From a virus: a DNA stretch of 64,000 nt. The stretch's first letter is position 1. Each line of letters starts with the position of its first letter. The notes below the pieces were generated by a model, which was not told the DNA's origin, searched no databases, and saw only the letters and a list, made by a program, of their open reading frames with translations. Below, one piece after another: positions 11,008 to 57,132 of this stretch. The DNA lies in IMG/VR virus record IMGVR_UViG_3300042914_002215; one strand, given 5' to 3'. Both the position numbers and the translations under genes were made by a program.

Positions 11008-11823
11008 ATGCAACTACAAGTTAACCTTGAACAACTAAGAAAAAATAAACTGTTCGTTGCTACACCAATGTATGGTGGCATGAACCACGGTTTGTACATG
11101 AAGTCATGTCTTGACTTGCAAACCATCATGATACGTTATGGTATCGAAACAAAATTCTCCTTTCTCTTCAACGAATCCCTAATCACACGTGCTCGTAATT
11201 ATCTGGTAGATGAATTTCTGCGTACAGATTTTACACACATGATGTTCATTGACTCCGATATTCATTTTGATCCAAATGATATTATTGCATTGATGGCACT
11301 TGATAAAGATGTTATCGGTGGTCCTTATCCTAAGAAGTCAATCAATTGGGGTAACATTGCTGAGACAGCACGTAAACATCCTGATTTGAATCCAAAAGAA
11401 CTTGAGAATCTTGTTGGTGAATATGTGTTCAACGTAGTAAAAGGCACACAACAATTCCAAGTATCAGAACCTCTAGAAGTTATGGAGATTGGTACAGGTC
11501 ACATGATGATCAAACGTGGAGTGTTTGATAAGATGAAAGAGGCGTATCCTTTCATTCGTTATAAGCCTGATCATATTGGTCAAGCACACTTTGACGGTTC
11601 ACGTTACATTCACGCATACTTTGATACTGTAATTGATACTACTGATTCATGTGTGGGTGGTGGTTCTGATCGTTATCTGTCAGAGGATTACATGTTCTGT
11701 CAGATGTGGCGCAAGATAGGTGGTCAAGTTTATCTGTGCCCATGGATGAAAACTCAACACATTGGTACATACGCATTTACTGGCAACATGCCCGCTGTTG
11801 CTCAGTATACTGGTAGACTTTGA
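11008..11823 (+). CDS. GT-A fold glycosyltransferase-like protein
   Basis: VATPMYGG, ESLITRARN, FIDSDI (DxD), GTGHMMIKR and LSEDYMFC motifs. Confidence 0.7.
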   Translation: MQLQVNLEQLRKNKLFVATPMYGGMNHGLYMKSCLDLQTIMIRYGIETKFSFLFNESLITRARNYLVDEFLRTDFTHMMFIDSDIHFDPNDIIALMALDKDVIGGPYPKKSINWGNIAETARKHPDLNPKELENLVGEYVFNVVKGTQQFQVSEPLEVMEIGTGHMMIKRGVFDKMKEAYPFIRYKPDHIGQAHFDGSRYIHAYFDTVIDTTDSCVGGGSDRYLSEDYMFCQMWRKIGGQVYLCPWMKTQHIGTYAFTGNMPAVAQYTGRL

Positions 11824-17665: not shown

Positions 17666-17829
17666 TGAAATCTAATTCAAATTTTAAAATGAATAAAGCA
17701 TTGAAGATATCACTTTCTTCAATGTCGGGTGAGCGTAAGCGTGATTACAAACAAGAGATGATCAAAGCAATCATTGCTCCACGCATCGAATTCAAAAAGA
17801 AAGCAAAAGTAGAGACAACAGATGAATGA
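17665..17829 (+). CDS. Small basic hypothetical protein (54 aa)
   Basis: Open frame overlapping the stop and start of its neighbours (MKSNSNFK…TTDE). Confidence 0.55.
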   Translation: MKSNSNFKMNKALKISLSSMSGERKRDYKQEMIKAIIAPRIEFKKKAKVETTDE

Positions 17830-18637
17830 CATATTGATGGTAAGTCACTTTCACAAGGACTTTCCATTCAATCATGATTCAAGTTGGATGAAAGCCGCTT
17901 TTGCTGGTGGCAGATATCCTTATGGATGGAATCCACCTGGACCCGGCAATTACGTCAACACTACACAGATGCATAGTATTCACGAATACATGCATTACTA
18001 TTCTGGTTGCCATGAGGATGAGTTTCTTCGTGCAATGGGTCAACAAGCATCTGAATATTACCTGTGGAAGTATGGTCAAGCAGACTACATTGGGTGCACC
18101 ACATATCGTCGGTACCTGAAGTTTGATGATGGACTTGAACCGAATGTCATCAAAGCAGGTATGGCACCGACAATTCAAAGTGCAAATTATCTTTCTTCCG
18201 ATCAACAACGAGATGCAGCATTGACATTGTTGCAAACTCATGATATAATAACAAATAGACTGACACCTCTACCATGCTCAGTGATTGATCAATATTTACA
18301 GTCACAGCCGTCAGAGTATATCAATTTATTCTTAGATGGTATTGAACAATTGATGCCAGATTACCGAAGTAAGATGAGCTGGTGGCATGGTAATGAAGCA
18401 AGTTTTGAGACTTGCTATATGATGCGTAAGCAACTGTTCAAGAAGTATGTCAGTGAATTATTTGAACTATTAGAATATGTATGGAAAAATGCAAAAACAG
18501 CATATCCAAGAATGCCGACAACATCAGAACCACTGCCGTGGCGATATCCAGGCTTCTTGGGTGAAAGATTCTTGCCATTCTTTATATACGCAAATGATGT
18601 AAACGTGTTTCGGGTTCCGCTTGTGATTCTGGAGTAA
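17822..18637 (+). CDS. DUF4422-like (glycosyltransferase-associated) protein
   Basis: DYIG-x-x-x-YRRY…F-x-KY-x-x-x-LFELLE…R-x-PGFLGERF motifs. Confidence 0.65.
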   Translation: MNDILMVSHFHKDFPFNHDSSWMKAAFAGGRYPYGWNPPGPGNYVNTTQMHSIHEYMHYYSGCHEDEFLRAMGQQASEYYLWKYGQADYIGCTTYRRYLKFDDGLEPNVIKAGMAPTIQSANYLSSDQQRDAALTLLQTHDIITNRLTPLPCSVIDQYLQSQPSEYINLFLDGIEQLMPDYRSKMSWWHGNEASFETCYMMRKQLFKKYVSELFELLEYVWKNAKTAYPRMPTTSEPLPWRYPGFLGERFLPFFIYANDVNVFRVPLVILE

Positions 18638-27864: not shown

Positions 27865-28133
27865 GTTACGATATCAATAAGATTTTAGCAGAGTATGCAG
27901 ATGATGACTTTGGCTTCAGTGCAGTAGATGAAGTTGAATATGAAGCAGTCATTGCAGAAAAAGACGAAACTGTTGAAGAGTACAAAGAAAGACTTCAACA
28001 AGTAGAAAAGATTATCATGCCATTTCTGACCAATCTATACAAGACTGCCAGCCAGCCATACATTCATTGGCCTAATCGTGGTCCTATTATTGAGAAACAG
28101 ATGCAGAAAATTCTGACATTGACGAGGGGCTAA
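27861..28133 (+). CDS. Hypothetical protein
   Basis: DDFGFS…PFL-x-NL…YIHWPNR pattern; coupled ORF. Confidence 0.65.
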
Positions 28134-28453
28134 TGTTCAACATCACATCAACTGCTGCAAAGAAAATCAAATCAATAATTGATGAAGAAAACCCAGATTT
28201 GAAACTACGTGTGTTCGTACAGGGTGGTGGTTGCACAGGTTTTCAGTATGGCTTTACACTTGAAGAACAATCAGAAGCCGATGATCATGTGTTTGAACGT
28301 GATGGCATACAGGTTGTCATAGATAGTATTAGTATGCATTATGTGAATGATGCGGAAATTGATTATGAAGAATCATTGATGGGTTCACAATTCAAAATCA
28401 AAAATCCTAATGTAACTGCAACTTGCGGTTGTGGTTCATCATTTGCCGTATGA
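28133..28453 (+). CDS. erpA: A-type Fe-S cluster carrier (ErpA/IscA/HesB)
   Basis: [10 protein letters not shown]-x-GFQYGF…NPN…TCGCGSSF. Confidence 0.92.
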
Positions 28454-28638: not shown

Positions 28639-29481
28639 ATGAAGGATTTGATAGTGGGTTGTGCGACCAATTATGATTGGTCAAAACTAAAATATTGGGT
28701 AAACTCAATCAACGCATCAGGATTTGAAGGTGATAAAGTCCTGATTCTTATGAACTGCGACAAAGATACCGTACAAAAAGTAACTGACGCAGGCTTCTCA
28801 ATCATAGCATTCAATCAAGATAAAGATGGTAATCTAACATATCAGTCACAACTGATGGTTCATGTTGAACGCTTCATTCACATTTATAAACTACTCAAAG
28901 ATAATCTTTATCGTTATGTTATTACAACAGATGTAAAAGATGTTATCTTTCAAAAGAATCCATCTGAGTGGTTGGAACAAAATCTAGTTAAAGAAGAACA
29001 TCTGGTATTTTCATCTGAGAGCATGAAATACAAAGATGAGCCGTGGGGACGTGAGAATCTAACACAGTGTTATGGTCAAAGCATCTACGAAGATTTCAAG
29101 AACAATACCATTTTCAATGTGGGTGTTCTTGCAGGTCGTGGTTATGCGATGAGAGATTTGGTATTACAATTATTCCTAAATTGTATCAATCGCCCAATTC
29201 CTATCGTTGATCAAGCGGTATTTAATGTAATGATTTCAAGACATCCTTATATTGAATCTTCAATGTATACCGCATCAGAAACAGGATGGGCATGTCAATT
29301 AGGTACAACGGCTGATCCAAGCAAGATTGATTCATTTAGACCACATCTATTAGAACCTTCACCGAAGATGGAAGGTGATAAAGTATTGACATCTACTGGA
29401 ATTGAGTATACAATAGTACATCAATATGATCGTGTACCAGAATGGAAGAAAGTGATTGAGGCAAAATATGACGACAAATAG
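28639..29481 (+). CDS. Glycosyltransferase-like protein
   Basis: ERF…TTDVKDVIFQ (DxxD), NVGVLAG, DQAVFN and HQYDR motifs. Confidence 0.6.
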   Translation: MKDLIVGCATNYDWSKLKYWVNSINASGFEGDKVLILMNCDKDTVQKVTDAGFSIIAFNQDKDGNLTYQSQLMVHVERFIHIYKLLKDNLYRYVITTDVKDVIFQKNPSEWLEQNLVKEEHLVFSSESMKYKDEPWGRENLTQCYGQSIYEDFKNNTIFNVGVLAGRGYAMRDLVLQLFLNCINRPIPIVDQAVFNVMISRHPYIESSMYTASETGWACQLGTTADPSKIDSFRPHLLEPSPKMEGDKVLTSTGIEYTIVHQYDRVPEWKKVIEAKYDDK

Positions 29482-30148
29482 AATAAAAGAACTGTTTTGG
29501 GAATTAGATAAACCATCTACAAAATGGTCAGGTTACTTTGATGTTTATGAACGACATCTGAAAAAGTTTGTGGGTAAAGCACCACGCATACTTGAAATTG
29601 GTGTGCTTGGCGGTGGTTCAATTGAACTATGGCTAAAGTATTTTGGACCAGGCACCTCTGTTGTTGCCGTTGATATCAATGAAGAGTGTTTGAAATATGA
29701 ATACAACGGTGATGTCAAAATTGTGATGGGTAATCAAGGTGATCCTGTATTTTGGGATGACTTTCTTGCGACACAAAACAAATTTGATATTGTCATTGAT
29801 GATGGTTCACATGTAATGAATCATCAGATTACAACACTTAACAAAGTATTTCCACACATCAAAGAGGGTGGAGTATTCATCTGTGAAGATACACACACAA
29901 GTTATTGGCCACAGCCATGGGGTGGTGTGTTCCGTGGTGCAGGTACATTCTTAGAGCATTCTAAACGTGTGACAGATATTCTCAATCAACAACACTTTCA
30001 GGGCGCACCGATTGCAGATGATGTTCTAAACACATATCATAATCTGCATTCAGTAGCATTTTACAATAGCATGGTTGTGATGGAAAAAGAAGAATTGAAA
30101 ACATTTGGTATCACAGACAATAAAGCAAACGTAGGAAGAGAACTATGA
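29468..30148 (+). CDS. Class I SAM-dependent (sugar O-)methyltransferase
   Basis: LEIGVLGGGS, VDI, DIVIDDGSH and GGVFICED motifs. Confidence 0.85.
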   Translation: MTTNRIKELFWELDKPSTKWSGYFDVYERHLKKFVGKAPRILEIGVLGGGSIELWLKYFGPGTSVVAVDINEECLKYEYNGDVKIVMGNQGDPVFWDDFLATQNKFDIVIDDGSHVMNHQITTLNKVFPHIKEGGVFICEDTHTSYWPQPWGGVFRGAGTFLEHSKRVTDILNQQHFQGAPIADDVLNTYHNLHSVAFYNSMVVMEKEELKTFGITDNKANVGREL

Positions 30149-30858
30149 AAATAGCACTGTGTATCTCCGGTCAACCACGTATGTGGGAAAAAGGTTTTGA
30201 GTATCACAATACAAACATCATCAAAGGTAATGATGTAACTGTATTTCTACATTCGTGGGAAATGCCAGCAGAACAAATGCAGCAGATTTCAGAAAAGTAT
30301 CAAGCAAAGAGTTTCATCACATCACCAAATCCTACGATTGATTTATCAAAATACACCAACACACCACCACCATCACCAAACTGGAAAGTCAAAGATGGTC
30401 GTATGTCAACGTGGGCACAAATGTATGCAATTTATGAATGTATGCGTACAAAACGTGAGTATGAAGAATATCATAATATGAAGTTTGATTGGGTCGTTCG
30501 TTCACGATTTGACTTTGCAATCAACATTCGTATACCGTTTGATACGCTGAATCCAAATAAACTGTACATACCAAACTGTCGTATGTCACTCAATCGTGAC
30601 TTTGGTAATGATCAGTTTGCATTCTCATCATCAGAAAACATGGACAAGTATTCGTATGCTTATCAGCACTACGATGAGTTTTATAAACAAGGTGTGCAGT
30701 TCATGATGGAAGATTTCATGAGTGCAAACTGGAAAAAGTATGGTCTTGTTGGTGATAATCTTGTGTACTGTGATGTCAATCACCCATTCTCACCAGGTGA
30801 ATATAATGGCACATGGCACTCACTTTTACGAAATGACATGGAAGAATGGCTGAAATAA
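30145..30858 (+). CDS. Putative glycan/phospho-sugar transferase-like protein
   Basis: MKIALCISGQPR…FLHSW…DWVVRSRFD…NDQFA pattern typical of uncharacterised proteins in glycan loci. Confidence 0.5.
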   Translation: MKIALCISGQPRMWEKGFEYHNTNIIKGNDVTVFLHSWEMPAEQMQQISEKYQAKSFITSPNPTIDLSKYTNTPPPSPNWKVKDGRMSTWAQMYAIYECMRTKREYEEYHNMKFDWVVRSRFDFAINIRIPFDTLNPNKLYIPNCRMSLNRDFGNDQFAFSSSENMDKYSYAYQHYDEFYKQGVQFMMEDFMSANWKKYGLVGDNLVYCDVNHPFSPGEYNGTWHSLLRNDMEEWLK

Positions 30859-31574
30859 ATCTTGTTATCTGTATGGCGGGTTATAACACACGCTTTCACG
30901 ATGTTGGCTTTGATATTCCAAAGTATCTGTTACCTTGGAATGGTAAGACAATCATTCATGATATTCTAAAGAATCTACACAAAGATTGTCATGTTCTTCT
31001 TGTTGCTAACAAGCGTGACATTTATTTTCAAGATCAACTTCTTGAAACGATTGAACCTTTTGGTTTGAATGAAAGAAACATTCTGTACATTGGCGACACA
31101 AGAGGTCAGGCACATACAGCAGCAATCGGTATTGGTCATCTGTATCATCCAGACTTACCAACTTTTATTCACAATGGAGATACGATTGTAACTGATCGTA
31201 ATTTGAAATTGATGAGTGAAATGCTTGCTGATCCTTATCTTGCTTATGTTGATGTGTTTGTGGGCAATTCACCAAAGTATTCTTATGTTCGTATGTTTGA
31301 GGAAACTGTGGTAGAGATTGTAGAGAAAAAACAAATATCACCATATGCATCATCAGGACTCTATGGATTTGAATCTGGCACAAAGTATCTTGAATATTAC
31401 GATAAACTTCAATCTACAGATGAACTTTATATTTCAAATGTAATTCAAAATATGATTGCAGATGGCAAATCTGTGTTCACAAATGGTTTATCAAATAAAC
31501 AAGAAACAATTGTGTTAGGCAGCCCACAAGAATACGGTATTGAGTTAGCAAGACAAACATTAGGTGCAAAATGA
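30846..31574 (+). CDS. Sugar-phosphate nucleotidyltransferase (NTP-transferase family)
   Basis: MAGYNTRF…PKYLL, T-x-GQAHT, HNGD, EIVEKK and ELYIS motifs. Confidence 0.8.
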   Translation: MAEINLVICMAGYNTRFHDVGFDIPKYLLPWNGKTIIHDILKNLHKDCHVLLVANKRDIYFQDQLLETIEPFGLNERNILYIGDTRGQAHTAAIGIGHLYHPDLPTFIHNGDTIVTDRNLKLMSEMLADPYLAYVDVFVGNSPKYSYVRMFEETVVEIVEKKQISPYASSGLYGFESGTKYLEYYDKLQSTDELYISNVIQNMIADGKSVFTNGLSNKQETIVLGSPQEYGIELARQTLGAK

Positions 31575-32539
31575 CTATAGTTATTCCATTGAAAGGTGGT
31601 TCTCTAAGTAAAACTTACAGATTACCACAATATGATATAGTTCGTAAAGAAGTATCACGTACAGAAAATCGTGAGTATGGTTTTATGCGTTGGTATTCTC
31701 AGTTGATGAAACTACAACACTTCAATCAGATTTATCCAGGTCTGTTTGCAGAAGTTGTTGCTGTTGGCTCTACTGGTGTTGATGCATGGTTTGATTTGAA
31801 ATATCTTCATGGTTTCCGTGACATCAAATCTATTCTCAGTGGTGAACCACTCAAAGAAGAAACAATATTCAAAATCAGCAAAGCAGTATGGAAAGGTTTG
31901 AACACAGTTCACTCTGTTGGTAGAACACCAATACCTGGCGCACCATCACTTTACTTCCGTGAAGAGATACATCAAAAGTTAATGGATGCATTGAAGATAC
32001 CAGCATTTGATGATTTCTTTAGAAAAGGTAGTTATTGGTTGAACAGTAGACCAGTCACGGGTCTTACTGGCACATTAGCAATTCATGGACCAATTCATGA
32101 ATTCTTTTCACATCTTGAGAATGATGATGAGTGTAATATTCATGGCAATCCTACATTAGAAAACATCATGTATTCTTTTGATGAAGATCGTGTTGTATTC
32201 ATTGACACGTATGAAGAAAGTATGTGGAATACAAAATATCTTGATTATGCACAAGTTCTTCAGTGCTCACGTAGTCATTATGGTTTTATTAATGATCGTG
32301 ATGTTCGTGTGGTTGAAACTGATTTCATGAATCCAAACACAATACCGAAGAACTTTGAAATCTTCAATGAGCACTTCGTGGCTGAACTGCCAAAAGATAA
32401 AATGAAACTCATAGATATATTAGAAGCATCACAGTTTATTCGTATGCTTCCATTTAAGTTGATTGCTGGCGACATCAACAAAGCAAAATATTTTTATGTA
32501 CATGCATCCAAATTGTTTCATGAGGCTTTAGATGAGTGA
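31571..32539 (+). CDS. APH/choline-kinase-like phosphotransferase
   Basis: Gly-rich GGSLS, RK, HGNPTLENI (Brenner-like) and VFID motifs. Confidence 0.7.
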   Translation: MTIVIPLKGGSLSKTYRLPQYDIVRKEVSRTENREYGFMRWYSQLMKLQHFNQIYPGLFAEVVAVGSTGVDAWFDLKYLHGFRDIKSILSGEPLKEETIFKISKAVWKGLNTVHSVGRTPIPGAPSLYFREEIHQKLMDALKIPAFDDFFRKGSYWLNSRPVTGLTGTLAIHGPIHEFFSHLENDDECNIHGNPTLENIMYSFDEDRVVFIDTYEESMWNTKYLDYAQVLQCSRSHYGFINDRDVRVVETDFMNPNTIPKNFEIFNEHFVAELPKDKMKLIDILEASQFIRMLPFKLIAGDINKAKYFYVHASKLFHEALDE

Positions 32540-33668
32540 TGAGTTTATGATGGACTATGACAAGTTCAAACGAACTTGGAAAGTAAAAACAGAACTACCA
32601 GTAGAATTCAAACTAACATATTCGGCTGATATATTCAATCCGAGTAATCAAGACATAGCAAATCTTTCCGAAAGCAATCGTAGAATCATTGTGATTGATA
32701 CTGAGGTATGGAATCTATACAAAGATAAGATTGATGCATACTTCGGTGCAACAAAACTTGAATCACAAATACTGATTATTGATTGCAAGGAAGAAAATAA
32801 GAACTGGAAGAACGCCGATGAAATTGTTACATTCTTTGAGAAACAAGGAGTCCTTCGTCGTGAGAAGATTATTGCGATTGGCGGTGGTGTCCTTCTGGAC
32901 ATTGTTGGTTTTGCTTGTAGCATTTATCGCCGTGGAATACCATATATCAAAATCCCTACAACACTTCTTGCAATTGTTGATGCCTCTGTAGGTTCAAAAG
33001 TAGCAGTCAATCATCTTGGTCGTCGTAATAGAATCGGCGCATACTATCCACCAGAAGCAACATTCATTGACAAAAAGTTTATTGCAACACAAAGTGAACG
33101 TGAGATTGTCAATGGTATTGCAGAGATATTCAAACTTGCAGTCATCAAGTCACCAGAACTTTTTAAGTTACTTGAAGAAAACGCAGAGATGTTGATTGAA
33201 GAAAAGTTTCAACATGGTGCAGTGCCAGTTCGTGTAATCAATCTTGCTATCACAGACATGATAGAAGAACTCGGCCCTAATCTGTGGGAGAAACGATTAG
33301 ATCGTTGTGTAGATTTTGGTCACACATTCAGTCCAGTGATTGAGATGGCAAACATACCAAACCTATTGCATGGTGAAGCAGTAGCACTTGATTGTTTACT
33401 CAGTTCATGTATCGCATTCAGCAGAACATACATTGGCTCAGATGAACTCAAAAGAATATTTGATGTAGCAAAACGATTGAAACTCAAAACATTCCATCCA
33501 GACTTTACAAACATGAAGATGTTGAAGGAAAGTTTGGGTGATGCAACAAAACACCGTAACGGTAATCAGTTTGCACCATTGCCAATTCACATTGGTAATT
33601 ACAAGATTGTAAATGATATCACAGATGAAGATATACAATATGGTATTGCTATTTTTGAGGAGATGTGA
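32532..33668 (+). CDS. Sedoheptulose-7-phosphate cyclase, EEVS (2-epi-5-epi-valiolone synthase) type
   Basis: GGGVLLD, PTTLLAIVDAS and RNRIGAYYPP, plus the diagnostic MIEELGPNLWE, VDFGHTFSP and HGEAV motifs. Confidence 0.85.
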   Translation: MSDEFMMDYDKFKRTWKVKTELPVEFKLTYSADIFNPSNQDIANLSESNRRIIVIDTEVWNLYKDKIDAYFGATKLESQILIIDCKEENKNWKNADEIVTFFEKQGVLRREKIIAIGGGVLLDIVGFACSIYRRGIPYIKIPTTLLAIVDASVGSKVAVNHLGRRNRIGAYYPPEATFIDKKFIATQSEREIVNGIAEIFKLAVIKSPELFKLLEENAEMLIEEKFQHGAVPVRVINLAITDMIEELGPNLWEKRLDRCVDFGHTFSPVIEMANIPNLLHGEAVALDCLLSSCIAFSRTYIGSDELKRIFDVAKRLKLKTFHPDFTNMKMLKESLGDATKHRNGNQFAPLPIHIGNYKIVNDITDEDIQYGIAIFEEM

Positions 33669-34333
33669 TGCGTAAAGTTGCTGTTGTCACTGGTTGCAGT
33701 TATGGTCTTGGCTTTGAAATAGCAGATAGACTTATTGACGAAGGCTATTTTGTCTGCGGTCTATCACGTTCACAACCCCCAATGAAATTGTTTTCTGCTC
33801 CTGATACATTTCAATGGATAGAATGTGATGTATCAAATGCAGAAGAAGTGAAGTTGGCATTTGAAAAGATGGGCGTGTTCATTGATGTGCTAGTCAATAA
33901 TGCTGGTGTGTTTGAGTATGGTGAGTTTTCTTCTCAGTCAATTAAAACGATTGATAAAATTATTGATATCAATGTCAAGGGCACGATGTATGTGACTAAA
34001 GCAGCACAGAAATATTTGTCACGTGGTTCAAATGTTTTCTTTATCAACTCTGTTGCTGGTTTGTACGAGATAAAGAATGAAGCAATCTATGCAGCATCAA
34101 AACATGCTCTCACAGCATTTGCTGGTATTCTTGGTGAAGAACTTCGTAATGATGGAATTAGAGTGACTAGCATTCATCCTGGCGGTATTGATACGCCAAT
34201 GCAAAGAACAAATCCAATCAAAAAAGAATTACTTCAACCGACAGAGATATCAAATCTAATCGTAAATGTAATCAATTCTAAAGCAACATATAAAACAATC
34301 AAACTATTTCCTGAATCAGAATGGCATCAATAA
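33668..34333 (+). CDS. Short-chain dehydrogenase/reductase
   Basis: TGCSYGLG, NNAG, S…YAASK and PGGIDT motifs. Confidence 0.9.
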   Translation: MRKVAVVTGCSYGLGFEIADRLIDEGYFVCGLSRSQPPMKLFSAPDTFQWIECDVSNAEEVKLAFEKMGVFIDVLVNNAGVFEYGEFSSQSIKTIDKIIDINVKGTMYVTKAAQKYLSRGSNVFFINSVAGLYEIKNEAIYAASKHALTAFAGILGEELRNDGIRVTSIHPGGIDTPMQRTNPIKKELLQPTEISNLIVNVINSKATYKTIKLFPESEWHQ

Positions 34334-35031
34334 TTCCAACTCAGCAGTTGTTCATCGTAACATCTGCACTCAATCCAAGAATGGGTGTTATTAGTCGTGA
34401 AGATAGACTTCAACAAACAATTGATGGTCTAAAGTCATTACGTGAAAAATGTCCAGATGCAATTGTCATACTTGCGGAAGGCTCACCAGATAAAGTTGAA
34501 GAAGAGAAAATAAAAGAACTGGCAGATTATGTTGATATGGTAGCAGATTTCTCTGGTAATAGAGATATTTCACAGTTTGCATCAGTAGGCAAAAAGAGTG
34601 AAGCAGAGAATGTGCTCATGCTCAAAATGATGATGTTGTTGAAACAAGAGCCAAGTTTAATGAAACTTCGTCATTCAGTAAGTCGCATTTACAAACTATC
34701 GGGACGAACAATAATCAATGATGGTTTTGATATCAATGATCATAATCGGTTTGGTAAATATGTGTTCAAGAAACGTATGCCAACATGGCTACAAGGTGAA
34801 CGTGCCGAGATTTTTACAGATTTGTTGATTACCAGATTATTCTCATTCTGCCCAAGTCTGATTGATGATTACATGATAGTATGTCAAAGAAACATAGGCG
34901 TGGTCAACGATGCTGGTATTGACACCGAACACGCTCACTTTTTCAATATAAATCCAAATTACCTCATAGAACTTGACGATATTCACTGCCAGGGCATCAT
35001 GGCAGGCACAGGAGCCACGGAAATCTACTAA
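34321..35031 (+). CDS. Hypothetical protein, possibly transferase-like; last gene of the cyclitol island
   Basis: FIVTS…R-x-QQT…SL…KLSGR…EH pattern; coupled to the SDR gene. Confidence 0.5.
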   Translation: MASIIPTQQLFIVTSALNPRMGVISREDRLQQTIDGLKSLREKCPDAIVILAEGSPDKVEEEKIKELADYVDMVADFSGNRDISQFASVGKKSEAENVLMLKMMMLLKQEPSLMKLRHSVSRIYKLSGRTIINDGFDINDHNRFGKYVFKKRMPTWLQGERAEIFTDLLITRLFSFCPSLIDDYMIVCQRNIGVVNDAGIDTEHAHFFNINPNYLIELDDIHCQGIMAGTGATEIY

Positions 35032-35073: not shown

Positions 35074-37764
35074 ATGAAATTTAGAGATTTTCTACGTGAA
35101 CAGAAGGAAAAACATGCCGTCCTGGCTTTTGGACGCATGAATCCAATCACAAATGGTCACGAAAAATTAGTCAATAAAGTCAAAGAAATTGCCGATAAAG
35201 TCGGTGGTTCACATCACATCGTCCTGTCACATTCGCAGGACGCAAAGAAAAATCCCCTTACAGCAGATCAAAAAGTCAAACATGCCAGCAGAGCATTTCC
35301 TGGCACAAACTTCAAAGCAGCGTCTAAAGACAAACCAACTTTCTTTGATCATGCAGAAGAACTGCACAAGAAAGGTGTAACACATCTGCACATGGTAGGT
35401 GGTTCTGATCGTACAGAAGAATATCACAGACTGCTGCACAAATATAATGGCACACATGAAGGTGCTCGTTTCAACTTCAAAAAAATTACAGTACACTCTG
35501 CTGGCGAACGTGATCCAGATGCAGAAGGTGTAACTGGTATCTCAGCATCAAAGATGCGTGAACATGCAAAGAATGGCGATTTGAATTCATTCAAGCAAGG
35601 TGCACCATCATCAATGTCACATGCACATGTCAAACAAATGTACAACGATGTCCGTAAGGGCATGAGATTGCACGAAGAAATCATTCGTGAAGGTGTACAT
35701 GACAAAGGTATTTTCAAAGCAGTATTCTTAGGCGGTGGTCCTGGCTCAGGTAAAGATTACGTTCTATCAAATACATTAGATGGTCACGGTCTTGTTGAGA
35801 TCAATTCAGACAAAGCACTTGAATATTTGATGGACAAAGAAAATCTGGACAAGAAGATGCCAGATAGTGAAGAGAAACAACGTAATGAAGTTCGTAAACG
35901 TGCAAAGAATATTACAGAGTTGCGTCAACGTTTAGCCCTTCATGGTCGTAATGGTCTTATCATCAATGGTACTGGTGATGATCCTGAGAAATACATGAAG
36001 ATCAAAGAGATGCTTGAGAAACTTGGCTACGACACACATATGGTTATGGTAAACACCAAAGATGAAGTTTCTAAGGCAAGAAATATAGAACGTGGTCAAC
36101 GTGGTGGTCGTACAGTGCCAGAGGATATTCGTAGAGAAAAATGGGAAGCAGTACAACAAGCAAGACCACAGTTTGCAAAGATGTTTCGTGATAACTATGT
36201 TGAGTTTGATAACTCAGCAGATTTGCGTGAAGCACCACCAGAACTTGTTGATGCTAAGAAAAAAGAAATGGAAAATATCTACAAACGTATTCAAAAGTTT
36301 GTAGGTCAACCGCCAAAAGCAGATCAAGCAAAAGGTTGGATTGCAACAGAATTAGGTAAGAAAGATACAGCACCGATTCGTCGTGATACAAAGCCACACG
36401 ATGCTGCTGGCACACATGATCAAATGAATACGATGGGTCTAGAGTATTATGGTTTTGGTCGTTACGGCAAAGATGGCAAAGTAACTCATCGTTCAGTACA
36501 TGGTTCACTTGTGCCAGTAGAGAAGATTGCAAAAACTGTAGAGACACATCAAAAGAAAATGCAAAAGATGAATGAGGCAGTCACAGTCTCAATCACTGGC
36601 GATACAGTAGAAGAAGTAACACGCACAATCAAGTTTTTGAAAACAGATGATGAAGTAGAAATGGCAGAGGAAGAAGAAGTAAATACAATGTCCGATCCTG
36701 GTGCATACAATTTACTCACACTCGGTCATGGCATGATCAAAGAAGATTTACGTCAATGGTTTGATCCAAAACATCCAAAGGGTGGATGGAAACGTATCAA
36801 CAGTAAAGGTGAAGCGATTGGTCCTTGTGCCCGTGAGCCAGGTGAAGCAAAACCAAAATGCATGTCAAATGAAAAACGTGCATCACTATCCAAGAAAGAA
36901 CGTGCTTCAGCAGTCGCAGCAAAACGCCGTCACGATCCAAATCCAGAACGTCAAGGTAAACCGATCAATGTATCAAGTTTTGGTAAAGGTAAAATAAGTG
37001 AAGCGGCATATGAGGGCAATATTGGCATGATGGAAGTCATGAAGTTTCATCAGAAGGCAACTGACGAGCAGAAAAAACAATTCAAGAAACACATGGCAGA
37101 TAAGAATCATAAAGAAGCATGGAAGTTAGTTCAACACGTATCGGGTACAAAACTTGTTGGTAAACAATTTGAAGAAACAGAAAAGAAACAAAAACTAATG
37201 ACTGACAATAAAGGTAAACCAAGAGTGTTTCACTTTAGAATGTCAGCAGCAAAAGAAGCGCACCGTAATGGTGGCACTGTAGCAAAAGTTGGAAACAAAT
37301 ATGTTGTCAAACTAAAAGAGGACTTAGATGAAGTTTATACACCAAGTGATTCTACAATTGAAATCCATTATGGACAGAATAGTTCCACCCCTTCCGCAAA
37401 AGAATTGGGAAAGGTTAGAACCAACACTGGAAGAAAAGAAAGACCCAGTGCAGACAAACCCGTTGCCGAAGCAAGAAGAACCATCACCCTCAACACAATC
37501 AAAGAAAACTTCCAGAAGAAAGTCCAAGAGTCAATTGACAAAGGAATAGAACCTGGTATTTCTATGGCTGGTGCTGGTGAGTCTCCTGCACGTGACATGG
37601 GTGAGAAGTTGAGCAAGAAAGGTAAAGCAACACAAGTTGTGCCTAAGAGAATTGATGAGTTGACTGGCGATACAACAACAGCAAGCATCGGTGATCAAAA
37701 AGAAGATGAGTTGAAGAAAAAAGGTATCTCACTAACTACATTCAAAAAGAGAAACTACGTATGA
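35074..37764 (+). CDS. Multidomain protein: HxGH-type nucleotidyl(cytidylyl)transferase, P-loop kinase and small C-terminal modules; capsid-targeting N-terminus
   Basis: FGRMNP-x-TNGH, KNPL, GGSDR and SASKMR (NTase); GGPGSGKD, INSD and R-x-x-RGGR-x-VP (kinase); MKFRDFLRE. Confidence 0.75.
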   Translation: MKFRDFLREQKEKHAVLAFGRMNPITNGHEKLVNKVKEIADKVGGSHHIVLSHSQDAKKNPLTADQKVKHASRAFPGTNFKAASKDKPTFFDHAEELHKKGVTHLHMVGGSDRTEEYHRLLHKYNGTHEGARFNFKKITVHSAGERDPDAEGVTGISASKMREHAKNGDLNSFKQGAPSSMSHAHVKQMYNDVRKGMRLHEEIIREGVHDKGIFKAVFLGGGPGSGKDYVLSNTLDGHGLVEINSDKALEYLMDKENLDKKMPDSEEKQRNEVRKRAKNITELRQRLALHGRNGLIINGTGDDPEKYMKIKEMLEKLGYDTHMVMVNTKDEVSKARNIERGQRGGRTVPEDIRREKWEAVQQARPQFAKMFRDNYVEFDNSADLREAPPELVDAKKKEMENIYKRIQKFVGQPPKADQAKGWIATELGKKDTAPIRRDTKPHDAAGTHDQMNTMGLEYYGFGRYGKDGKVTHRSVHGSLVPVEKIAKTVETHQKKMQKMNEAVTVSITGDTVEEVTRTIKFLKTDDEVEMAEEEEVNTMSDPGAYNLLTLGHGMIKEDLRQWFDPKHPKGGWKRINSKGEAIGPCAREPGEAKPKCMSNEKRASLSKKERASAVAAKRRHDPNPERQGKPINVSSFGKGKISEAAYEGNIGMMEVMKFHQKATDEQKKQFKKHMADKNHKEAWKLVQHVSGTKLVGKQFEETEKKQKLMTDNKGKPRVFHFRMSAAKEAHRNGGTVAKVGNKYVVKLKEDLDEVYTPSDSTIEIHYGQNSSTPSAKELGKVRTNTGRKERPSADKPVAEARRTITLNTIKENFQKKVQESIDKGIEPGISMAGAGESPARDMGEKLSKKGKATQVVPKRIDELTGDTTTASIGDQKEDELKKKGISLTTFKKRNYV

Positions 37765-40724: not shown

Positions 40725-42008
40725 ATGAAAGTCAAACCTCTAAAAATCAAAATAAAGCAGCAGCCGCCAACTGCTGCTGAGAGGTTATATCAGAGACATC
40801 AGGCAATTCGTAAAGAAAAAGGATTGCCTGATCCATCCGAATATAAAAAGAAGTTGGAAGGTATGAAAGAAGATACCGAACAACTTGATGAGATGCCAGA
40901 ATCAAGTATGAAAACACGTGATGTACATTCACACTTGAAGAAAGCAGGTTGGGCAATAGCAAGAACTGGTGGTGGTCATGACATTTATAGTCATCCACAA
41001 GCAAAGCGTATTATTGCCGTGCCAAGACATAAACAATTGAAAGCACCTCTCATCAAAGGTATTCTCAAAGCATCAAAGGTATCTGAAGAAACAGAGATTG
41101 AAGAACAATTAGAGAAGAAGGGGCGATTCGTGTCTGGACCACCAAAGAAAACATTCAAAGCACCTACGATTGTATCGCCAATGAAAGAAGCAAAAGACAC
41201 ACGTGAATATGATTATGAAGGTGATATGGCAATGTCACAACTTCGTTCATTGGTATTCAATGCAGAAGATTTGATGGAAATGATGGATGAGAATACAAAT
41301 CTTCCTGAGTGGGTACAATCAAAGATTACACTTGCTGAAGATTATATCTCTACAGCAGCAAACTATCTGCGTGGTGAATTGACAGAAGAAGTGAATCTAA
41401 ATGAAGGTCGTCCATCTCAGCGTCATCCATTAGAAGATCATGATTATCACAAGAAGTCTAATGATGCATTGGTTCATATCGCAAAAGATGCTCATCAAGC
41501 AGCAGAAGCAATGAAGGGTCACAATACACAAGCAGAAAACAAGTATCGTGATCAAGCAAATGATTCTGCAACTGTAAGACATTGGAGAAGTAAGAATGGT
41601 ATGCCTGATTGGTACAGAAAGAAATACGGGCATGTAATTGATGGTAAAGTAATGCTCCCTGTACACACAGGTAGTATGAAAAAAGAAGAGATTGAGTATC
41701 TTGAAGAAAAGAATGCTCCAACTAATCCTGAACTGTGGTCAAGAGCAAAAGCACTTGCACGTTCCAAATTTGATGTGTATCCATCAGCATACGCTAATGG
41801 CTGGGCAGCAAAGTGGTACAAGTCCAAAGGCGGTGGTTGGAAAACTGTCAGTGAAGAAGCAGAAGAGCCAAGCATGGCAGCAAGAACTCTGTCACGTAAA
41901 GCACAGATCGTAAAAGATGCTGCGAAAAGCAAGAAAAACGAAGCAGAAGAGGCATCGGACAAGTTTCAAAAAGACCCCGAATTGTCCAGCGATATACAGA
42001 AAACATAA
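40725..42008 (+). CDS. Modular protein with an embedded HicA-like mRNA interferase domain and a DUF5872-like module
   Basis: MKTRDV…LKKAGW…RTGGGHDIYSHP…VPRH…GILK (about 40908-41075); NPELW…KFDVYPSAYA…YKSKGGGW. Confidence 0.65.
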   Translation: MKVKPLKIKIKQQPPTAAERLYQRHQAIRKEKGLPDPSEYKKKLEGMKEDTEQLDEMPESSMKTRDVHSHLKKAGWAIARTGGGHDIYSHPQAKRIIAVPRHKQLKAPLIKGILKASKVSEETEIEEQLEKKGRFVSGPPKKTFKAPTIVSPMKEAKDTREYDYEGDMAMSQLRSLVFNAEDLMEMMDENTNLPEWVQSKITLAEDYISTAANYLRGELTEEVNLNEGRPSQRHPLEDHDYHKKSNDALVHIAKDAHQAAEAMKGHNTQAENKYRDQANDSATVRHWRSKNGMPDWYRKKYGHVIDGKVMLPVHTGSMKKEEIEYLEEKNAPTNPELWSRAKALARSKFDVYPSAYANGWAAKWYKSKGGGWKTVSEEAEEPSMAARTLSRKAQIVKDAAKSKKNEAEEASDKFQKDPELSSDIQKT

Positions 42009-54630: not shown

Positions 54631-54693
54631 AAAACTTGAAAAAAATAGATAAGTGTGATATTGTGCAATCGCACAATTCCTATAGGAGATATT

Positions 54694-55716
54694 ATGAAGA
54701 ATCTATTATTATCGTTGTTACTATTCACAGGTGTCGCATCAGCAGCAGATTTAACCGGTGCTGGTGCGACATTTCCATATCCAATCTATGCAAAATGGGC
54801 TGAAGCATACAAATCAGCAACAGGCATAGGACTCAATTATCAATCAATCGGATCGGGTGGCGGTATCCGTCAAATCAAAGCAAAGACAGTTGACTTTGGT
54901 GCAAGTGATATGCCATTGAAGCCGGAAGAATTAGACAAAGAAGGTCTAATGCAATTTCCTGCAATCATTGGTGGTGTAGTACCAGTTATAAATCTTGAAG
55001 GTGTTGCACCAGGTCAATTAAAGTTGACGAGTGATGTTGTTGCAGGTATTCATCTTGGTAAAATTACAAAGTGGAATGACAAAGCAATCACTGATTTGAA
55101 TCCTGGTGTAAATTTACCAGCATTGAATATCACTGTAATTCATCGTGCAGATGGTTCTGGTACAACATTCATTTGGACAAACTATCTGAGCAAAGCAAAT
55201 CCAGATTTTGCAAAAACAGTTGGTGAAGGCACAGCAGTGAAATGGCCTACAGGTATTGGTGGTAAAGGTAATGAAGGTGTTGCAGCAAATGTTCAACGTG
55301 TAAAAGGCGCATTTGGTTATGTTGAATATGCATACGCAAAGAAAAATAAAATTGCATGGGCACAATTGAAGAATCGTGATGGCAATTTTGTACAACCAGA
55401 CGATAATACATTCAAAGCAGCAGCAGCAAATGCAGACTGGGCAAATGCACCAGGCATGTATTTGTTACTGACATACCAAACCGGTAAAGATGCATGGCCT
55501 GCAACTGGCGCAAGTTTTATTTTAATGCACAAGCAACAAACCGATGCACTAACAGGCAAAGCAATTCTTAAATTCTTTGATTGGAGTTACAAGAACGGTG
55601 CAAAGATGAGTGAGGATTTGGAGTATGTACACATGCCTCAATCAGTTATCAAGTTAGTACAAGATAACTGGAAAAAGGATCTAAAAGGTCCTGATGGTAA
55701 CACAATTTGGAAATAA
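54694..55716 (+). CDS. pstS: Phosphate ABC transporter periplasmic binding protein
   Basis: Signal peptide, GAGATFP, YQSIGSGGG, DFGASD and RADGSGTT motifs. Confidence 0.96.
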   Translation: MKNLLLSLLLFTGVASAADLTGAGATFPYPIYAKWAEAYKSATGIGLNYQSIGSGGGIRQIKAKTVDFGASDMPLKPEELDKEGLMQFPAIIGGVVPVINLEGVAPGQLKLTSDVVAGIHLGKITKWNDKAITDLNPGVNLPALNITVIHRADGSGTTFIWTNYLSKANPDFAKTVGEGTAVKWPTGIGGKGNEGVAANVQRVKGAFGYVEYAYAKKNKIAWAQLKNRDGNFVQPDDNTFKAAAANADWANAPGMYLLLTYQTGKDAWPATGASFILMHKQQTDALTGKAILKFFDWSYKNGAKMSEDLEYVHMPQSVIKLVQDNWKKDLKGPDGNTIWK

Positions 55717-55725
55717 GGATAAATC

Positions 55726-57132
55726 ATGAAATTATTTAAGAAACTTGCTATTGTTGTTGCACTTACGACAGTAATTCCAGCATATGCTGATAGCCACAAA
55801 GAAACTCTGAGTATTCTGAGAGACAAAGGTATTCTTACTCAACAAGAGTATGAAACTAAAATCAAAGAATATGAGGATAAAGAAGAAAATAAAAAATTTG
55901 TTGAACAAAGAATTGACAGAGATGTTAGTGAATCAAACAAATGGAGAATTGCAAGACAAGATGATGGTGGAGTCATGGGCAATGGACTTGGAATCAAATC
56001 TAAAGACGGTAACACGACTGCCCAATTTACAGGTAGACTTCATATGGACTACCGAACTTATACACCAGACTATGCCAAAGGTCAAAGCACAGATACGTAT
56101 CAAGATGGCTTAGAAGTACGTCGTGCAAGATTTGGTGTTCGTGGTCAATTTGCAAAAGACTTCAAATATCTTCTATTAGCAAACTTTGGTAATGATACAG
56201 GTGCAGCATCAACATCATCTACTATGGATGAAATGTGGGTAAACTATGCAGCCAATCCTGAAATGCAGTTTCAATTTGGTTTGTTCAAAATGCCATTTAG
56301 TCTTGAGCAGTTGACCAGTTCAAACAATCTTGACTTTATGGAACGCAGTTTGATTGGTCAAACAGAAGGTGAATTTATACCTGCGAAAGAAACAGGAGTG
56401 ATGATACATGGTGTGCCTAAAACTGGTTTTACATATGCCGTGGCTCTCAGTCGTGGACGAGGAAATAAGAGCGCCACAGCGGACGGTACTGATGTAATTG
56501 GTCGTGCAACAGTAAACTTTGCTGAACTTGCTATGATCAAAGACACAGTAATGCATCTTGGTGCAGCATACAGTGTAGGTGACATTAGAGGTGGCGTAGC
56601 ACCAGCAAGTGGTCGTACAGAAAGTCGCCAACAAAGTGCATACTTTACAGGTCCTACATTGAGTGGAGATACAAATCGTACACGCCAAGGTCTTGAAGCA
56701 GCATACTCATATAAAGCATTGAAACTACAAGGTGAACAGTTTCAATTCACATATGATCCTGCGAAAGGTGCTGATCAAAAGATTGATGGTTATTACATTC
56801 AAGCAATGTACAATCTGACGGGTGAAAACCATAGTTACAAAGATGGTGTATTCGGTTGGGTAAAGCCAAGCAATCCAGTTGATAAAGGTGGCAAGGGTGC
56901 ATGGCAAGTTGGTGTACGTGCAAGTGAGTTCAATGCCGATGATATTGCAGTGGTCGCAGGCAAGACAAACAAAGCAACGTCACTGACATATGGCATTACA
57001 TGGTTTGCCAATGATAATCTACGTTTCATGCTAAACTATGTGGACACTAAGTTTGACGCACCTGTTGGTGCAGCAGGCAGTCGTGTAAACGGTGATAAAG
57101 CAGTAATGCTCAGAGGTCAACTGAGTTTCTAA
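55726..57132 (+). CDS. Phosphate-selective porin (OprO/OprP family)
   Basis: Signal peptide, GRLHMD, RRARFG, G-x-FKMPFSLEQLTSS…FMERS; C-terminal Phe; follows pstS. Confidence 0.85.
   Translation: MKLFKKLAIVVALTTVIPAYADSHKETLSILRDKGILTQQEYETKIKEYEDKEENKKFVEQRIDRDVSESNKWRIARQDDGGVMGNGLGIKSKDGNTTAQFTGRLHMDYRTYTPDYAKGQSTDTYQDGLEVRRARFGVRGQFAKDFKYLLLANFGNDTGAASTSSTMDEMWVNYAANPEMQFQFGLFKMPFSLEQLTSSNNLDFMERSLIGQTEGEFIPAKETGVMIHGVPKTGFTYAVALSRGRGNKSATADGTDVIGRATVNFAELAMIKDTVMHLGAAYSVGDIRGGVAPASGRTESRQQSAYFTGPTLSGDTNRTRQGLEAAYSYKALKLQGEQFQFTYDPAKGADQKIDGYYIQAMYNLTGENHSYKDGVFGWVKPSNPVDKGGKGAWQVGVRASEFNADDIAVVAGKTNKATSLTYGITWFANDNLRFMLNYVDTKFDAPVGAAGSRVNGDKAVMLRGQLSF

Follow-up and report, generated by a model that had tools for sequence, protein, structure and literature searches.

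In the branch leading to acarbose and validamycin, an EEVS acts on sedoheptulose 7-phosphate and is followed by a reductase, a kinase that prepares the 1-phosphate and a nucleotidyltransferase, giving an NDP-carbasugar (PMC9200736). The pseudoglycosyl transfers characterised so far all use allylic, unsaturated GDP-valienol and an amine nucleophile, and are carried out by GT-B enzymes (PMC9200736). A first-pass annotation of the DNA studied here knew of no described viral cyclitol pathway, and in the literature we likewise found no publication describing one, or describing the cassette reported below. Kinase-fold proteins next to nucleotidyltransferases are known from pairs with roles in salvage and activation, among them AmgK-MurU and LicA-LicC. 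Known phage glycan islands include gene clusters for LPS or sugars in T4-like cyanophages, and the virion glycosylation genes of other phages.

The window, which is the whole stretch of 64,000 nt analysed from IMGVR_UViG_3300042914_002215, belongs to an uncultured T4-like phage from water, in agreement with the phage origin proposed for it earlier. Eight open reading frames (g1 to g8), all on the + strand, occupy positions 28639-35031, and every neighbouring gene pair overlaps, by 4-14 nt. The first-pass annotation had given this same overlapping arrangement and these coordinates, and its methyltransferase start is an in-frame ATG at 29468. The island is inserted as a discrete block between DUF6267 and another gene; in the related phage Melnitz only 0.4 kb separates these two. 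The same gene order is found in around 30 T4-like contigs of IMG/VR; with dN/dS values of 0.05-0.22, purifying selection acts on each of the eight genes. Together these results argue that the island is more than a chance assembly. On balance we regard the island as a phage-carried glycan-building module, whose substrates, products, step order, nucleotide, type of transfer and acceptor we infer from the genes.

The core gene g6 (32532..33668, 378 aa) encodes a protein matching Pfam DHQ_synthase and DHQS_C above their cut-offs; against NCBIfam aroB it scores 219 bits, under the 305-bit cut-off. Among solved structures in the PDB its best match is ValA (4P53, 295 bits), followed by DDGS (5TPR, 217 bits) and DHQS (137 bits or less). 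Three motifs, NLWE, VDFGH and HGEAV, align to ValA 4P53, whereas DDGS 5TPR has NLHE, IAYGH and HGHAV; the motifs and this contrast had been given in the first-pass annotation and the alignments confirm them. Both residues of the EEVS-versus-DDGS fingerprint, D261 and H341 (ValA D281 and H360), are invariant, where DDGS has A and T. E198, H264 and H280 are also invariant and the metal ligands are kept. A cassette cyclase from a bacterium likewise matches ValA best. In an IQ-TREE phylogeny the cassette-linked cyclases form one clade (support 99/97) apart from the ValA-like actinomycete enzymes, and all 22 sampled loci lacking the cassette (21 actinomycete, one myxobacterial) fall outside it. Monophyly of the phage cyclases has support 98/94, and a gammaproteobacterial MAG groups with them. 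The PDB ranking, the fingerprint residues and the tree agree with the earlier proposal: judged by sequence, g6 is an EEVS-type cyclase and not AroB or DDGS, a type within which EEVS, EVS and an enzyme with a novel product look alike. No EEVS-type cyclase was found among GenBank phage records.

Four genes, g4 to g7, are kept together in the approximately 30 T4-like viral contigs, and the same four-gene core recurs in 13 loci of bacteria, which span nine phyla or more. In two divergent phages (L029, L030) the core persists while all accessory genes differ, the neighbours being GT8, GT2 and GT29-like genes and a methyltransferase. Two of the 13 bacterial loci are clear surface-polysaccharide loci. 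The locus of a Polynucleobacter isolate comprises ManC, GT2, Wzz, the cassette, GT9, an RmlB-like enzyme, a dTDP-sugar isomerase, DegT and a methyltransferase. In a Balneolaceae MAG the cassette belongs to a large polysaccharide locus that also encodes an ABC transporter, GT2, GT4 and epimerases, and a bacterial homologue of g3 (L042:8254-9015) sits immediately upstream of it; no homologue of g1, g2 or g8 was found beside the bacterial cassettes. The reductase, kinase-fold protein and nucleotidyltransferase, earlier proposed to act with the cyclase, are thus inherited with it in both phages and bacteria, which fits an NDP-cyclitol product.

The reductase g7 (33665..34333, 222 aa) is a classical SDR and a putative cyclitol ketoreductase. 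It matches Pfam adh_short over the cut-off (2.4e-41), and among proteins of known structure it is related to ketoreductases and glucose-1-dehydrogenase-like enzymes. This slot holds an SDR in 12 of the 16 cassette loci compared and an aldo/keto reductase at the same position in the other four, a non-orthologous displacement that speaks for carbonyl reduction as a step of the pathway. The sugar-phosphate nucleotidyltransferase g4 (30846..31574, 242 aa) matches Pfam NTP_transferase over the cut-off (3.4e-10) and, weakly, the RmlA, GlmU and MurU types in NCBIfam; its nearest solved relative is an NDP-sugar pyrophosphorylase (4EVW, 1.2e-12) and it is found in 15 of the 16 loci.

The remaining core gene, g5 (31571..32539, 322 aa), adjoins the cyclase in all 16 loci. 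It has no match in Pfam. Its AF2 model (pLDDT 92.7) finds NahK, APH(2''), FN3K and LicA as best Foldseek matches, and VIA aligns 240-280 of its residues with APH(4)-Ia, APH(2''), choline kinase, FN3K and maltokinase at Z 17-19; the model thus predicts a small-molecule kinase-like protein of the APH/choline-kinase fold. The catalytic loop reads HGN(193)PTLEN(198) and is followed by D212. The ATP/Mg residues K26, E35, N198 and D212 are invariant. N193 takes the position of the catalytic Asp in the APH-type HxDxxxxN motif and is Asn in 28/28 homologues, so any phosphotransfer by g5 may be inefficient or atypical.

The accessory genes flank this core. The first-pass annotation saw a GT-like gene at one end and an unknown gene at the other; the former stands, but weakly, and the latter can now be given a fold. 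The phage-specific g1 (28639..29481, 280 aa), a putative GT-A-type glycosyltransferase, matches PHROG 1579 'glycosyltransferase' at 2.5e-6 and GT_PLOD at only 0.011, a weak likeness. It contains an invariant T-D-V-K-D stretch (D98, D101), and across 29 viral contigs it shows 64-93% identity, with dN/dS 0.05. The terminal gene g8 (34321..35031, 236 aa), also phage-specific, has no match in Pfam, NCBIfam or PHROG and occurs in two copies in L027 and L028. Its AF2 model (pLDDT 84) matches alpha-1,3-GalT and glycogenin in Foldseek at ~1e-5, and VIA (Z ~12) gives a tie between GT-A glycosyltransferases and nucleotidyltransferases, with cytidylyltransferases as close; the Atlas lead is WavE, at 0.90 only. 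A GT-A / nucleotide-diphospho-sugar transferase superfold is therefore predicted for g8, a fold common to glycosyltransferases and nucleotidyltransferases. The methyltransferase g2 (29456..30148, likely start ATG 29468, ~226-230 aa) matches Pfam Methyltransf_24 just at the cut-off (1.2e-5) and a PHROG methyltransferase family at 8e-20. Its nearest solved relatives, 3SSM (2e-22) and the demethylmacrocin O-methyltransferase 8IA9 (5.6e-18), bear out the O-methyltransferase named earlier and place it in the SAM-dependent sugar O-methyltransferases of MycE/TylE type; it resembles methyltransferases acting on sugars already attached glycosidically. It is absent from L001 and L032 and relocated in L026-L028. 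The g3 protein (30145..30858, 237 aa), a possible transferase, matches DUF7796 slightly under the Pfam cut-off (3.2e-6) and PHROG 13607 at 7e-23, with Atlas clusters of viral DUF7796.

In the pathway we propose, g6 would take sedoheptulose 7-phosphate from the host and cyclise it; the resulting C7 cyclitol ketone, most probably 2-epi-5-epi-valiolone, would be reduced by g7 to a secondary alcohol. The kinase-like g5 would then place a phosphate on a cyclitol hydroxyl, most simply the new pseudo-anomeric one, and g4 would join NMP to the cyclitol phosphate, forming an NDP-cyclitol. Finally g1, g3 and g8 (GT-A-like or unassigned) together with g2 would put this donor to use, or modify it, on a glycoconjugate; the target would be a glycan of virion proteins or of the host envelope. 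We consider this course, from ketone to alcohol, phosphate, activated cyclitol and glycoconjugate, reasonably probable. Among the eight island proteins there is no match to epimerase, dehydratase, Zn-ADH, phosphatase, aminotransferase or GT-B families; since no epimerase, dehydratase or aminotransferase is matched, the cyclitol would be saturated. The least secure step is transfer of the carbasugar onto a glycan, because known pseudoglycosyltransferases use GDP-valienol and an amine nucleophile, and the first-pass annotation overstated it. If the pathway is correct, a virus would turn a common metabolite into a nucleotide-activated pseudo-sugar with a seven-carbon ring, as predicted from its genes.

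The same NDP-cyclitol could instead serve as a phospho-alcohol donor, with the cyclitol phosphate joined to the glycan by a phosphodiester as for CDP-choline, CDP-glycerol, CDP-ribitol and CDP-inositol. LicA and LicC likewise pair an APH-fold kinase with a nucleotidyltransferase, g5 has LicA as one of its fold matches, and cytidylyltransferases are as near to g8 as glycosyltransferases. The cyclitol is probably saturated, as no dehydratase was matched; displacing NDP from a ring carbon that is not allylic is difficult chemistry, and the pseudoglycosyltransferases known so far require the allylic donor and an amine (PMC9200736). However, the island has no match to the LicD, TagF, Stealth or CDP-alcohol phosphatidyltransferase families, these are also absent from the Pfam matches listed, untargeted, for cassette-flanking genes in four bacterial loci, and g2-type methyltransferases work on glycosidically attached sugars, so we hold a phosphodiester linkage to be rather unlikely. 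There is a small chance that no NDP-cyclitol is made at all, g5 being an altered pseudokinase or non-kinase enzyme and g4 activating an ordinary sugar 1-phosphate while the cyclitol has another fate. Kinase-fold proteins without the catalytic Asp often perform other chemistry, and the change to Asn is universal among g5 homologues, but the invariant ATP/Mg residues, the constant company of g5 with the cyclase and the near-constant company of g4 argue for activation. Cyclases of this family strip the sole phosphate of sedoheptulose 7-phosphate by their mechanism, and hence the nucleotidyltransferase would need a kinase.

Phage DNA, one acceptor suggested earlier, appears very improbable as the target of an activated cyclitol. 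DNA glycosylation is classically known from T4-like phages, and a clear TET-associated glycosyltransferase (TAGT) family member (window:5888-6784, 141 bits), 22 kb upstream of the island, adjoins a methyltransferase and could use such a donor for hypermodification. A complete 172-kb relative bearing the cassette (cyclase 98% identical) has, however, no TAGT, ThyA-type hydroxymethylase or C5 DNA methyltransferase, TAGT is present in only one of five other cassette-bearing contigs (fragments), and the bacterial cassettes are located in envelope polysaccharide loci. The island might also yield a free small molecule, whether a gadusol-like UV screen or antioxidant, as the first-pass annotation had considered, or a glycosidase inhibitor or signal resembling valienol, streptol or kirkamide. 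The gadusol gene set is an EEVS, a methyltransferase and an oxidoreductase (PMC4426668), signal and inhibitor roles of C7 cyclitols are described (PMC12904256), and UV protection might benefit an aquatic phage. We nevertheless find this improbable: the methyltransferase is dispensable, being missing from two viral contigs and from 13/13 bacterial cassettes, and is not of the fused MT-Ox type, whereas the kinase-like protein of every cassette and the nucleotidyltransferase of nearly all are not required for gadusol. The setting of the cassette, in GT-rich islands of phages and polysaccharide loci of bacteria, also speaks against it.

The proposed route to an NDP-cyclitol donor for a glycoconjugate shares with the GDP-valienol branch (AcbC/ValA, AcbM/ValC, AcbO, AcbL, AcbN, AcbU, AcbJ, AcbR/ValB, AcbS/VldE) an EEVS start, a reductase, a kinase and a nucleotidyltransferase, so that the earlier statement that the enzyme classes are the same holds at the broadest level. 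The kinase, however, is of the APH fold and not of ROK/glucokinase type, the nucleotidyltransferase is short, and the island has no match to the epimerase, dehydratase, phosphatase, aminotransferase or GT-B pseudoglycosyltransferase of that branch. Its ValA-like cyclases belong to actinomycete secondary-metabolite clusters; the phage cyclase lies in a separate clade, although ValA is its best solved relative, and the setting of the cassette is a lytic-type phage and bacterial envelope-polysaccharide loci.

In the gadusol (EEVS and MT-Ox) and mycosporine (DDGS and O-MT) pathways, too, a methyltransferase and an oxidoreductase accompany a sedoheptulose-7-phosphate cyclase (PMC4426668), but in the island the methyltransferase is separate, MycE/TylE-like and not always present, and it is the kinase-like protein and nucleotidyltransferase that are conserved. 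The g5-g4 pair resembles LicA-LicC (CDP-choline), AmgK-MurU (UDP-MurNAc) and NahK, with an APH-fold kinase and an RmlA/GlmU-superfamily nucleotidyltransferase; here the kinase would act on a carbocyclic C7 polyol supplied by the island's own cyclase and reductase, and its motif has Asn for the catalytic Asp. Like other phage glycan islands, this one consists of hypervariable GT-like and sugar-nucleotide genes inserted between conserved T4-like core genes, but its donor would be a carbasugar and not a true sugar.

The genetic setting of the island is that of a T4-like myovirus, with nearly all long open reading frames on the plus strand and a G+C content of about 38%. The window encodes a gp46-like nuclease, gp43 DNA polymerase, gp41 helicase, UvsX and the clamp proteins gp44 and gp45, together with NrdA, NrdB, CobS and a virion structural protein. 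The DNA polymerase shares about 51% identity with its counterparts in T4-like cyanophages. For the gene immediately upstream of the island, Methylophilales phage Melnitz (family Kyanoviridae) has a homologue with 47% identity. The eight plus-strand reading frames of the island (28639-35031, here g1 to g8), whose ends overlap by 4-14 nt, are exactly as the first-pass annotation gave them. The flanking genes, a DUF6267 gene and a gene of 896 codons, are 0.4 kb apart in Melnitz and 7.2 kb apart in the window, the gene cluster is therefore an inserted island. A scan for promoters and terminators gave no more sites than shuffled sequence.

The 896-amino acid protein (35074-37764) begins with a cytidylyltransferase-like domain, includes a P-loop kinase domain (zeta-toxin/AAA_33) and ends in a long C-terminal part. 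We rejected it as a member of the island because its homologue adjoins DUF6267 in Melnitz, which itself has no island; it is a conserved neighbour. A NadR-like role in NAD salvage is only a guess. Between DUF6267 and the island is an IscA/HesB-type iron-sulphur cluster assembly protein (28133-28453; Fe-S_biosyn, 4.5e-21). Elsewhere in the window there are scattered sugar-related genes, an NAD-dependent epimerase/dehydratase at the left edge (36-902), and a weak Anp1-like match and a DUF4422 protein (11008-11823 and 17822-18637); several glycan modules seem to be present in this phage. Residues 65-117 of a 427-amino acid protein (40725-42008) form an embedded HicA toxin domain (1.7e-10), and no HicB partner was noticed. 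Two adjacent genes at 54655-57132 encode a PstS-like phosphate-binding protein (PBP_like_2, 2.5e-35) and, next, a homologue of phosphate-selective porin O/P (6e-50). The presence of an outer-membrane porin in a phage suggests that the host is Gram-negative and that phosphate uptake is manipulated. Our guess for the host is freshwater Betaproteobacteria.

The cyclase g6 (32532-33668) has the two-domain architecture of dehydroquinate synthase (DHQS)-like proteins (Pfam DHQ_synthase, 2e-36; DHQS_C, 1.4e-19), and the glycine-rich NAD-binding loop GGGV..D is invariant in its relatives. Among solved structures its best match is ValA (4P53, 295 bits), followed by DDGS (5TPR, 217 bits), DHQS (at most 137 bits) and DOIS (90 bits). 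Two active-site positions are reported to separate EEVS, which makes 2-epi-5-epi-valiolone from sedoheptulose 7-phosphate, from DDGS (PMC4426668, citing Kean 2014). Both fingerprint positions of ValA were mapped onto g6 through the alignment with these solved structures. Phage residues D261 (VDFGH) and H341 (KHRNG) align with the ValA Asp and His, where DDGS has Ala and Thr. We take these ValA residues to be Asp281 and His360. D261 and H341 are invariant in 20 relatives of g6, and two DDGS-like sequences have Ala in place of the Asp and Lys or Thr in place of the His. Also invariant are E198, H264 and H280, the two histidines being 16 residues apart as in ValA; from the fold family these are presumed to be the Glu/His/His metal ligands.

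On these sequence grounds g6 is assigned as an EEVS-type, ValA-like cyclase, a label that does not separate EEVS from EVS (2-epi-valiolone synthase). The preference of the first-pass annotation for EEVS over AroB or DDGS is borne out, since ValA is the best solved match and both fingerprint residues are as in EEVS. An AroB gene of the shikimate pathway was rejected because g6 scores below the NCBIfam aroB equivalog cut-off and the protein is ValA-like, and a DDGS of a mycosporine pathway was rejected because the fingerprint residues do not match.

The island is widespread in environmental phages. A scan of IMG/VR gave 33 loci with a cyclase at 65-98% identity, about 30 of which carry most or all of the eight genes in the same order, so that the cluster, whose conservation in related phage contigs had been proposed as a check, is syntenic across them. 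The protein database has over 120 cyclase clusters with at least 73% identity, and the contigs that carry them reach 184 kb. All eight genes have dN/dS values of 0.05-0.22 against two diverged contigs. The most divergent phages (L029 and L030) keep only g4-g5-g6-g7 of the island, here called the core or cassette, and in these the neighbouring genes encode GT8, GT2, GT29-like and methyltransferase proteins. Identity to a single contig differs by gene, about 90% for g1-g3 versus about 70% for g4, g5 and g7, which suggests recombination between the accessory module and the core. Comparison of the window island with three further contigs (L033, L001 and L004) gave mosaic identity, with a reversed pattern in L001; the methyltransferase g2 is missing from this contig and from L032. 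The island had no blastn match in GenBank phages, and tblastn of the cyclase against them gave only AroB-like matches below 34% identity, a large part of them from records that are bacterial or mislabelled; an EEVS-type cyclase was found in no GenBank phage record.

The core is also found in bacteria. In a search of one genome per prokaryotic species we examined the best 80 cyclase relatives, and in 13 of these a g5 homologue is directly upstream of the cyclase. A g4 homologue was found by blastp in 11 of the 13 cassettes, and a twelfth has a weak nucleotidyltransferase-domain match. The reductase slot is filled by an SDR in nine cassettes and by an aldo/keto reductase at the same position in four, which argues that carbonyl reduction is part of the pathway. 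The methyltransferase is absent from all 13. These cassettes occur in Pseudomonadota, Myxococcota, Balneolota, Fibrobacterota, Acidobacteriota, Thermodesulfobacteriota, Saccharimonadota and one Prochlorococcus single-cell assembly. The last of these is a 10-kb marine contig (Prochlorococcus sp. AG-424-E20) with a nucleotidyltransferase, a kinase-like protein, the cyclase and an aldo/keto reductase beside a sulfotransferase; this short contig may be cellular or viral.

Around the cassette of Polynucleobacter sp. 80A-SIGWE, a cultured strain, there are genes for ManC, GT2, Wzz, GT9 and an RmlB-like enzyme, and the locus also encodes a dTDP-sugar isomerase, DegT, a methyltransferase and a split transketolase. 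The transketolase is at the end of this polysaccharide locus, as separate N-terminal and pyrimidine-binding genes (L114:19957-21176); its role might be in the supply of sedoheptulose 7-phosphate or in a pathway to branched sugars. In a Balneolaceae MAG the cassette is inside a large polysaccharide locus that includes a g3 homologue, and in a gammaproteobacterial MAG it adjoins a GT2 gene on a chromosome with housekeeping genes.

The first-pass annotation had proposed a phylogeny of the cyclase, and the tree places the phage enzymes in a separate cassette clade; it was drawn with ValA-like and DDGS-like sequences. The tree of 65 sequences was made with IQ-TREE and has the DDGS-like sequences as its root. 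In it the cassette-linked cyclases form one clade (99/97), and the 22 non-cassette loci sampled, 21 from actinomycetes and one myxobacterial, all fall outside this clade. Phage cyclases are monophyletic (98/94) and group with the cyclase of the gammaproteobacterial MAG (100/99). The ValA-like representative (487 bits to 4P53) sits in the actinomycete clade; the best match of the Polynucleobacter cyclase is still ValA. A first FastTree of 244 sequences agreed with this result.

The kinase-like protein g5 has no family match. Its AF2 model (pLDDT 92.7) matches APH(4)-Ia, APH(2''), choline kinases, fructosamine-3-kinase (FN3K), maltokinase and N-acetylhexosamine 1-kinase with Z-scores of 17-19 over 240-280 residues, and the bilobal kinase fold superposes on APH(4)-Ia, APH(2''), choline kinase and FN3K with an rmsd of about 3.1-3.7 Å over 240-264 residues. 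The catalytic loop is H191-G-N193-P-T-L-E-N198 with D212 downstream, the motif of the family being HxDxxxxN and, further on, a metal-binding Asp. Asn193 thus replaces the catalytic Asp, and it is invariant in the 28 g5 homologues aligned; the residues expected for ATP and Mg binding (K26, E35, N198 and D212) are likewise invariant. Asn is unusual at the catalytic position and is a weak point of the pathway reading. This Asn-variant kinase fold poses a well-defined question of enzymology.

Of the other core proteins, g7 is a classical SDR, and g4 belongs to the NTP_transferase family, is kept with the cyclase and has an NDP-sugar pyrophosphorylase as its closest solved relative. Among the accessory proteins g2 resembles MycE and TylE, enzymes that O-methylate sugars already attached to an aglycone. 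The protein g1 has a weak likeness to glycosyltransferases and g3 is a viral DUF7796 protein. The terminal gene g8, present as first annotated and there called unknown, encodes a protein whose model (pLDDT 84) has the GT-A/nucleotide-diphospho-sugar transferase superfold, and is equally near retaining glycosyltransferases and cytidylyltransferases (Z about 12). Profile-profile comparison gave no kinship of g1, g3 and g8 to each other. In the best 80 bacterial cyclase loci the g1 and g8 HMMs have no match and the g3 HMM has one. Homologue searches with g8 found close viral relatives only, all without Pfam annotation. Atlas searches with g3 and g8 gave viral clusters; their sole lead, WavE (0.90), was too weak to use.

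The cyclase reaction of the g6 family removes the only phosphate of the substrate and leaves a ring ketone. We propose that g6 would convert sedoheptulose 7-phosphate to the ketone, g7 would reduce this to a secondary alcohol, g5 would phosphorylate the alcohol and g4 would turn the cyclitol phosphate into an NDP-cyclitol. This order is the simplest reading of the conserved four-protein set. In this phage lineage g1, g3 and g8 are candidate transferases, and g2 may act late as an O-methyltransferase. As for substrate supply, no transaldolase was found in a complete 172-kb cassette-bearing relative. Both the glycosyltransferase-rich phage surroundings of the core and its bacterial polysaccharide loci suggest that the NDP-cyclitol would be used on a glycoconjugate. 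The broadest form of this reading is tentative, and we put it at somewhat less than an even chance: that a widespread lineage of freshwater phages of the T4-like type, and also bacteria from many phyla, make an NDP-activated saturated C7 carbasugar by a minimal four-enzyme route and install it on surface or virion glycoconjugates, a new class of carbocycle-bearing glycan with a glycosidase-resistant linkage that phages use in infection. The proposed enzymes of this route, predicted from the genes, are an EEVS, a ketoreductase, an Asn-variant APH-fold kinase and a short nucleotidyltransferase.

The form in which the cyclitol is transferred is less clear. No dehydratase, epimerase or aminotransferase was detected in the island, which makes a saturated cyclitol the probable product. 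Those pseudoglycosyltransferases that have been characterised belong to the GT-B enzymes and depend on allylic GDP-valienol plus an amine; according to the authors of PMC9200736, every natural pseudo-oligosaccharide known when they wrote has a C-N pseudo-anomeric bond. Transfer of the cyclitol phosphate through a phosphodiester, instead of transfer of the carbocycle in the manner of a sugar, is therefore a serious alternative, but no known phosphotransferase family was detected in the island. A free, gadusol-like product, which the first-pass annotation had offered as an alternative, is unlikely. The methyltransferase is dispensable, as its absence from L001, L032 and the bacterial cassettes indicates, while the kinase-like protein and the nucleotidyltransferase are kept. 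The gadusol pathway pairs EEVS with a fused MT-Ox protein, whereas in the island the methyltransferase and SDR are separate genes and the methyltransferase is MycE/TylE-like.

Phage DNA had also been suggested as the acceptor. The window encodes a clear TET-associated glycosyltransferase (TAGT) homologue (5888-6784; 141 bits against a cut-off of 27.5), which favours this option. However, the complete cassette-bearing relative lacks TAGT, a ThyA-type hydroxymethylase and a C5 DNA methyltransferase, and TAGT occurs in only one of five other cassette contigs, DNA is therefore a disfavoured acceptor. The TAGT gene is immediately preceded by a class-I methyltransferase gene and a small reading frame (5095-5925 and 4782-5132), downstream of a peptide deformylase (4214-4807), and this stretch may mark a DNA base hypermodification module. 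A search for TET/JBP gave no information, since its control also found the family nowhere.

EEVS-made C7 cyclitols are known from antibiotics and drugs, as parts of validamycin and acarbose, and also as a vertebrate sunscreen and as metabolites of plant symbionts. To our knowledge they have no known role as units of glycans on cell surfaces or of viruses, and are not known from viruses. The first-pass annotation knew of no described viral cyclitol pathway and our full-text searches agree: no paper was found in which phages, auxiliary metabolic genes or lipopolysaccharide are connected with valiolone or EEVS, and viruses go unmentioned in a cyclitol review of 2026. What would be new is EEVS cyclitol chemistry joined to nucleotide activation by different enzymes, its genomic setting and its viral carrier. 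If the cassette makes an NDP-carbasugar, it would be a compact new route to activated pseudo-sugars for glycoengineering and inhibitor design, and a new glycan decoration in environmental bacteria that is testable in the cultured Polynucleobacter strain. It would also be a new type of phage auxiliary pathway, in which eight genes are spent on a hydrolysis-resistant glycan unit that possibly masks receptors or protects virions.

The first-pass annotation held that the island has the same enzyme classes as the acarbose and validamycin pathways. This stands in the broadest terms only. In those pathways the C7-cyclitol 7-kinase is of the ROK/glucokinase type (AcbM/ValC), whereas the only kinase-like protein of the island is APH-fold and none of the eight proteins has a ROK or glucokinase match in Pfam or NCBIfam. 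An epimerase and a dehydratase (AcbO and AcbL) lead there to the unsaturated valienol skeleton; these families have no match in the eight island proteins (Pfam, NCBIfam and PHROG), and a novel enzyme of this type may be present through g3. Transfer there is by a GT-B pseudoglycosyltransferase (GT5 AcbS or GT20 VldE) to an amino acceptor that an aminotransferase makes, whereas g8 is GT-A-like and the island has no match to GT-B or aminotransferase families (Pfam, NCBIfam and PHROG). The nucleotidyltransferase of those pathways acts on a cyclitol 1-phosphate; g4, a member of the NTP_transferase family kept with the cyclase, is a candidate for such a step. In acarbose biosynthesis the AcbU and AcbR steps make GDP-valienol (PMC9200736), and the phage core resembles them in the activation by a kinase-fold protein and a nucleotidyltransferase that we propose here from the genes. 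The same pairing of a kinase-fold protein with a nucleotidyltransferase is found in LicA/LicC and AmgK/MurU.
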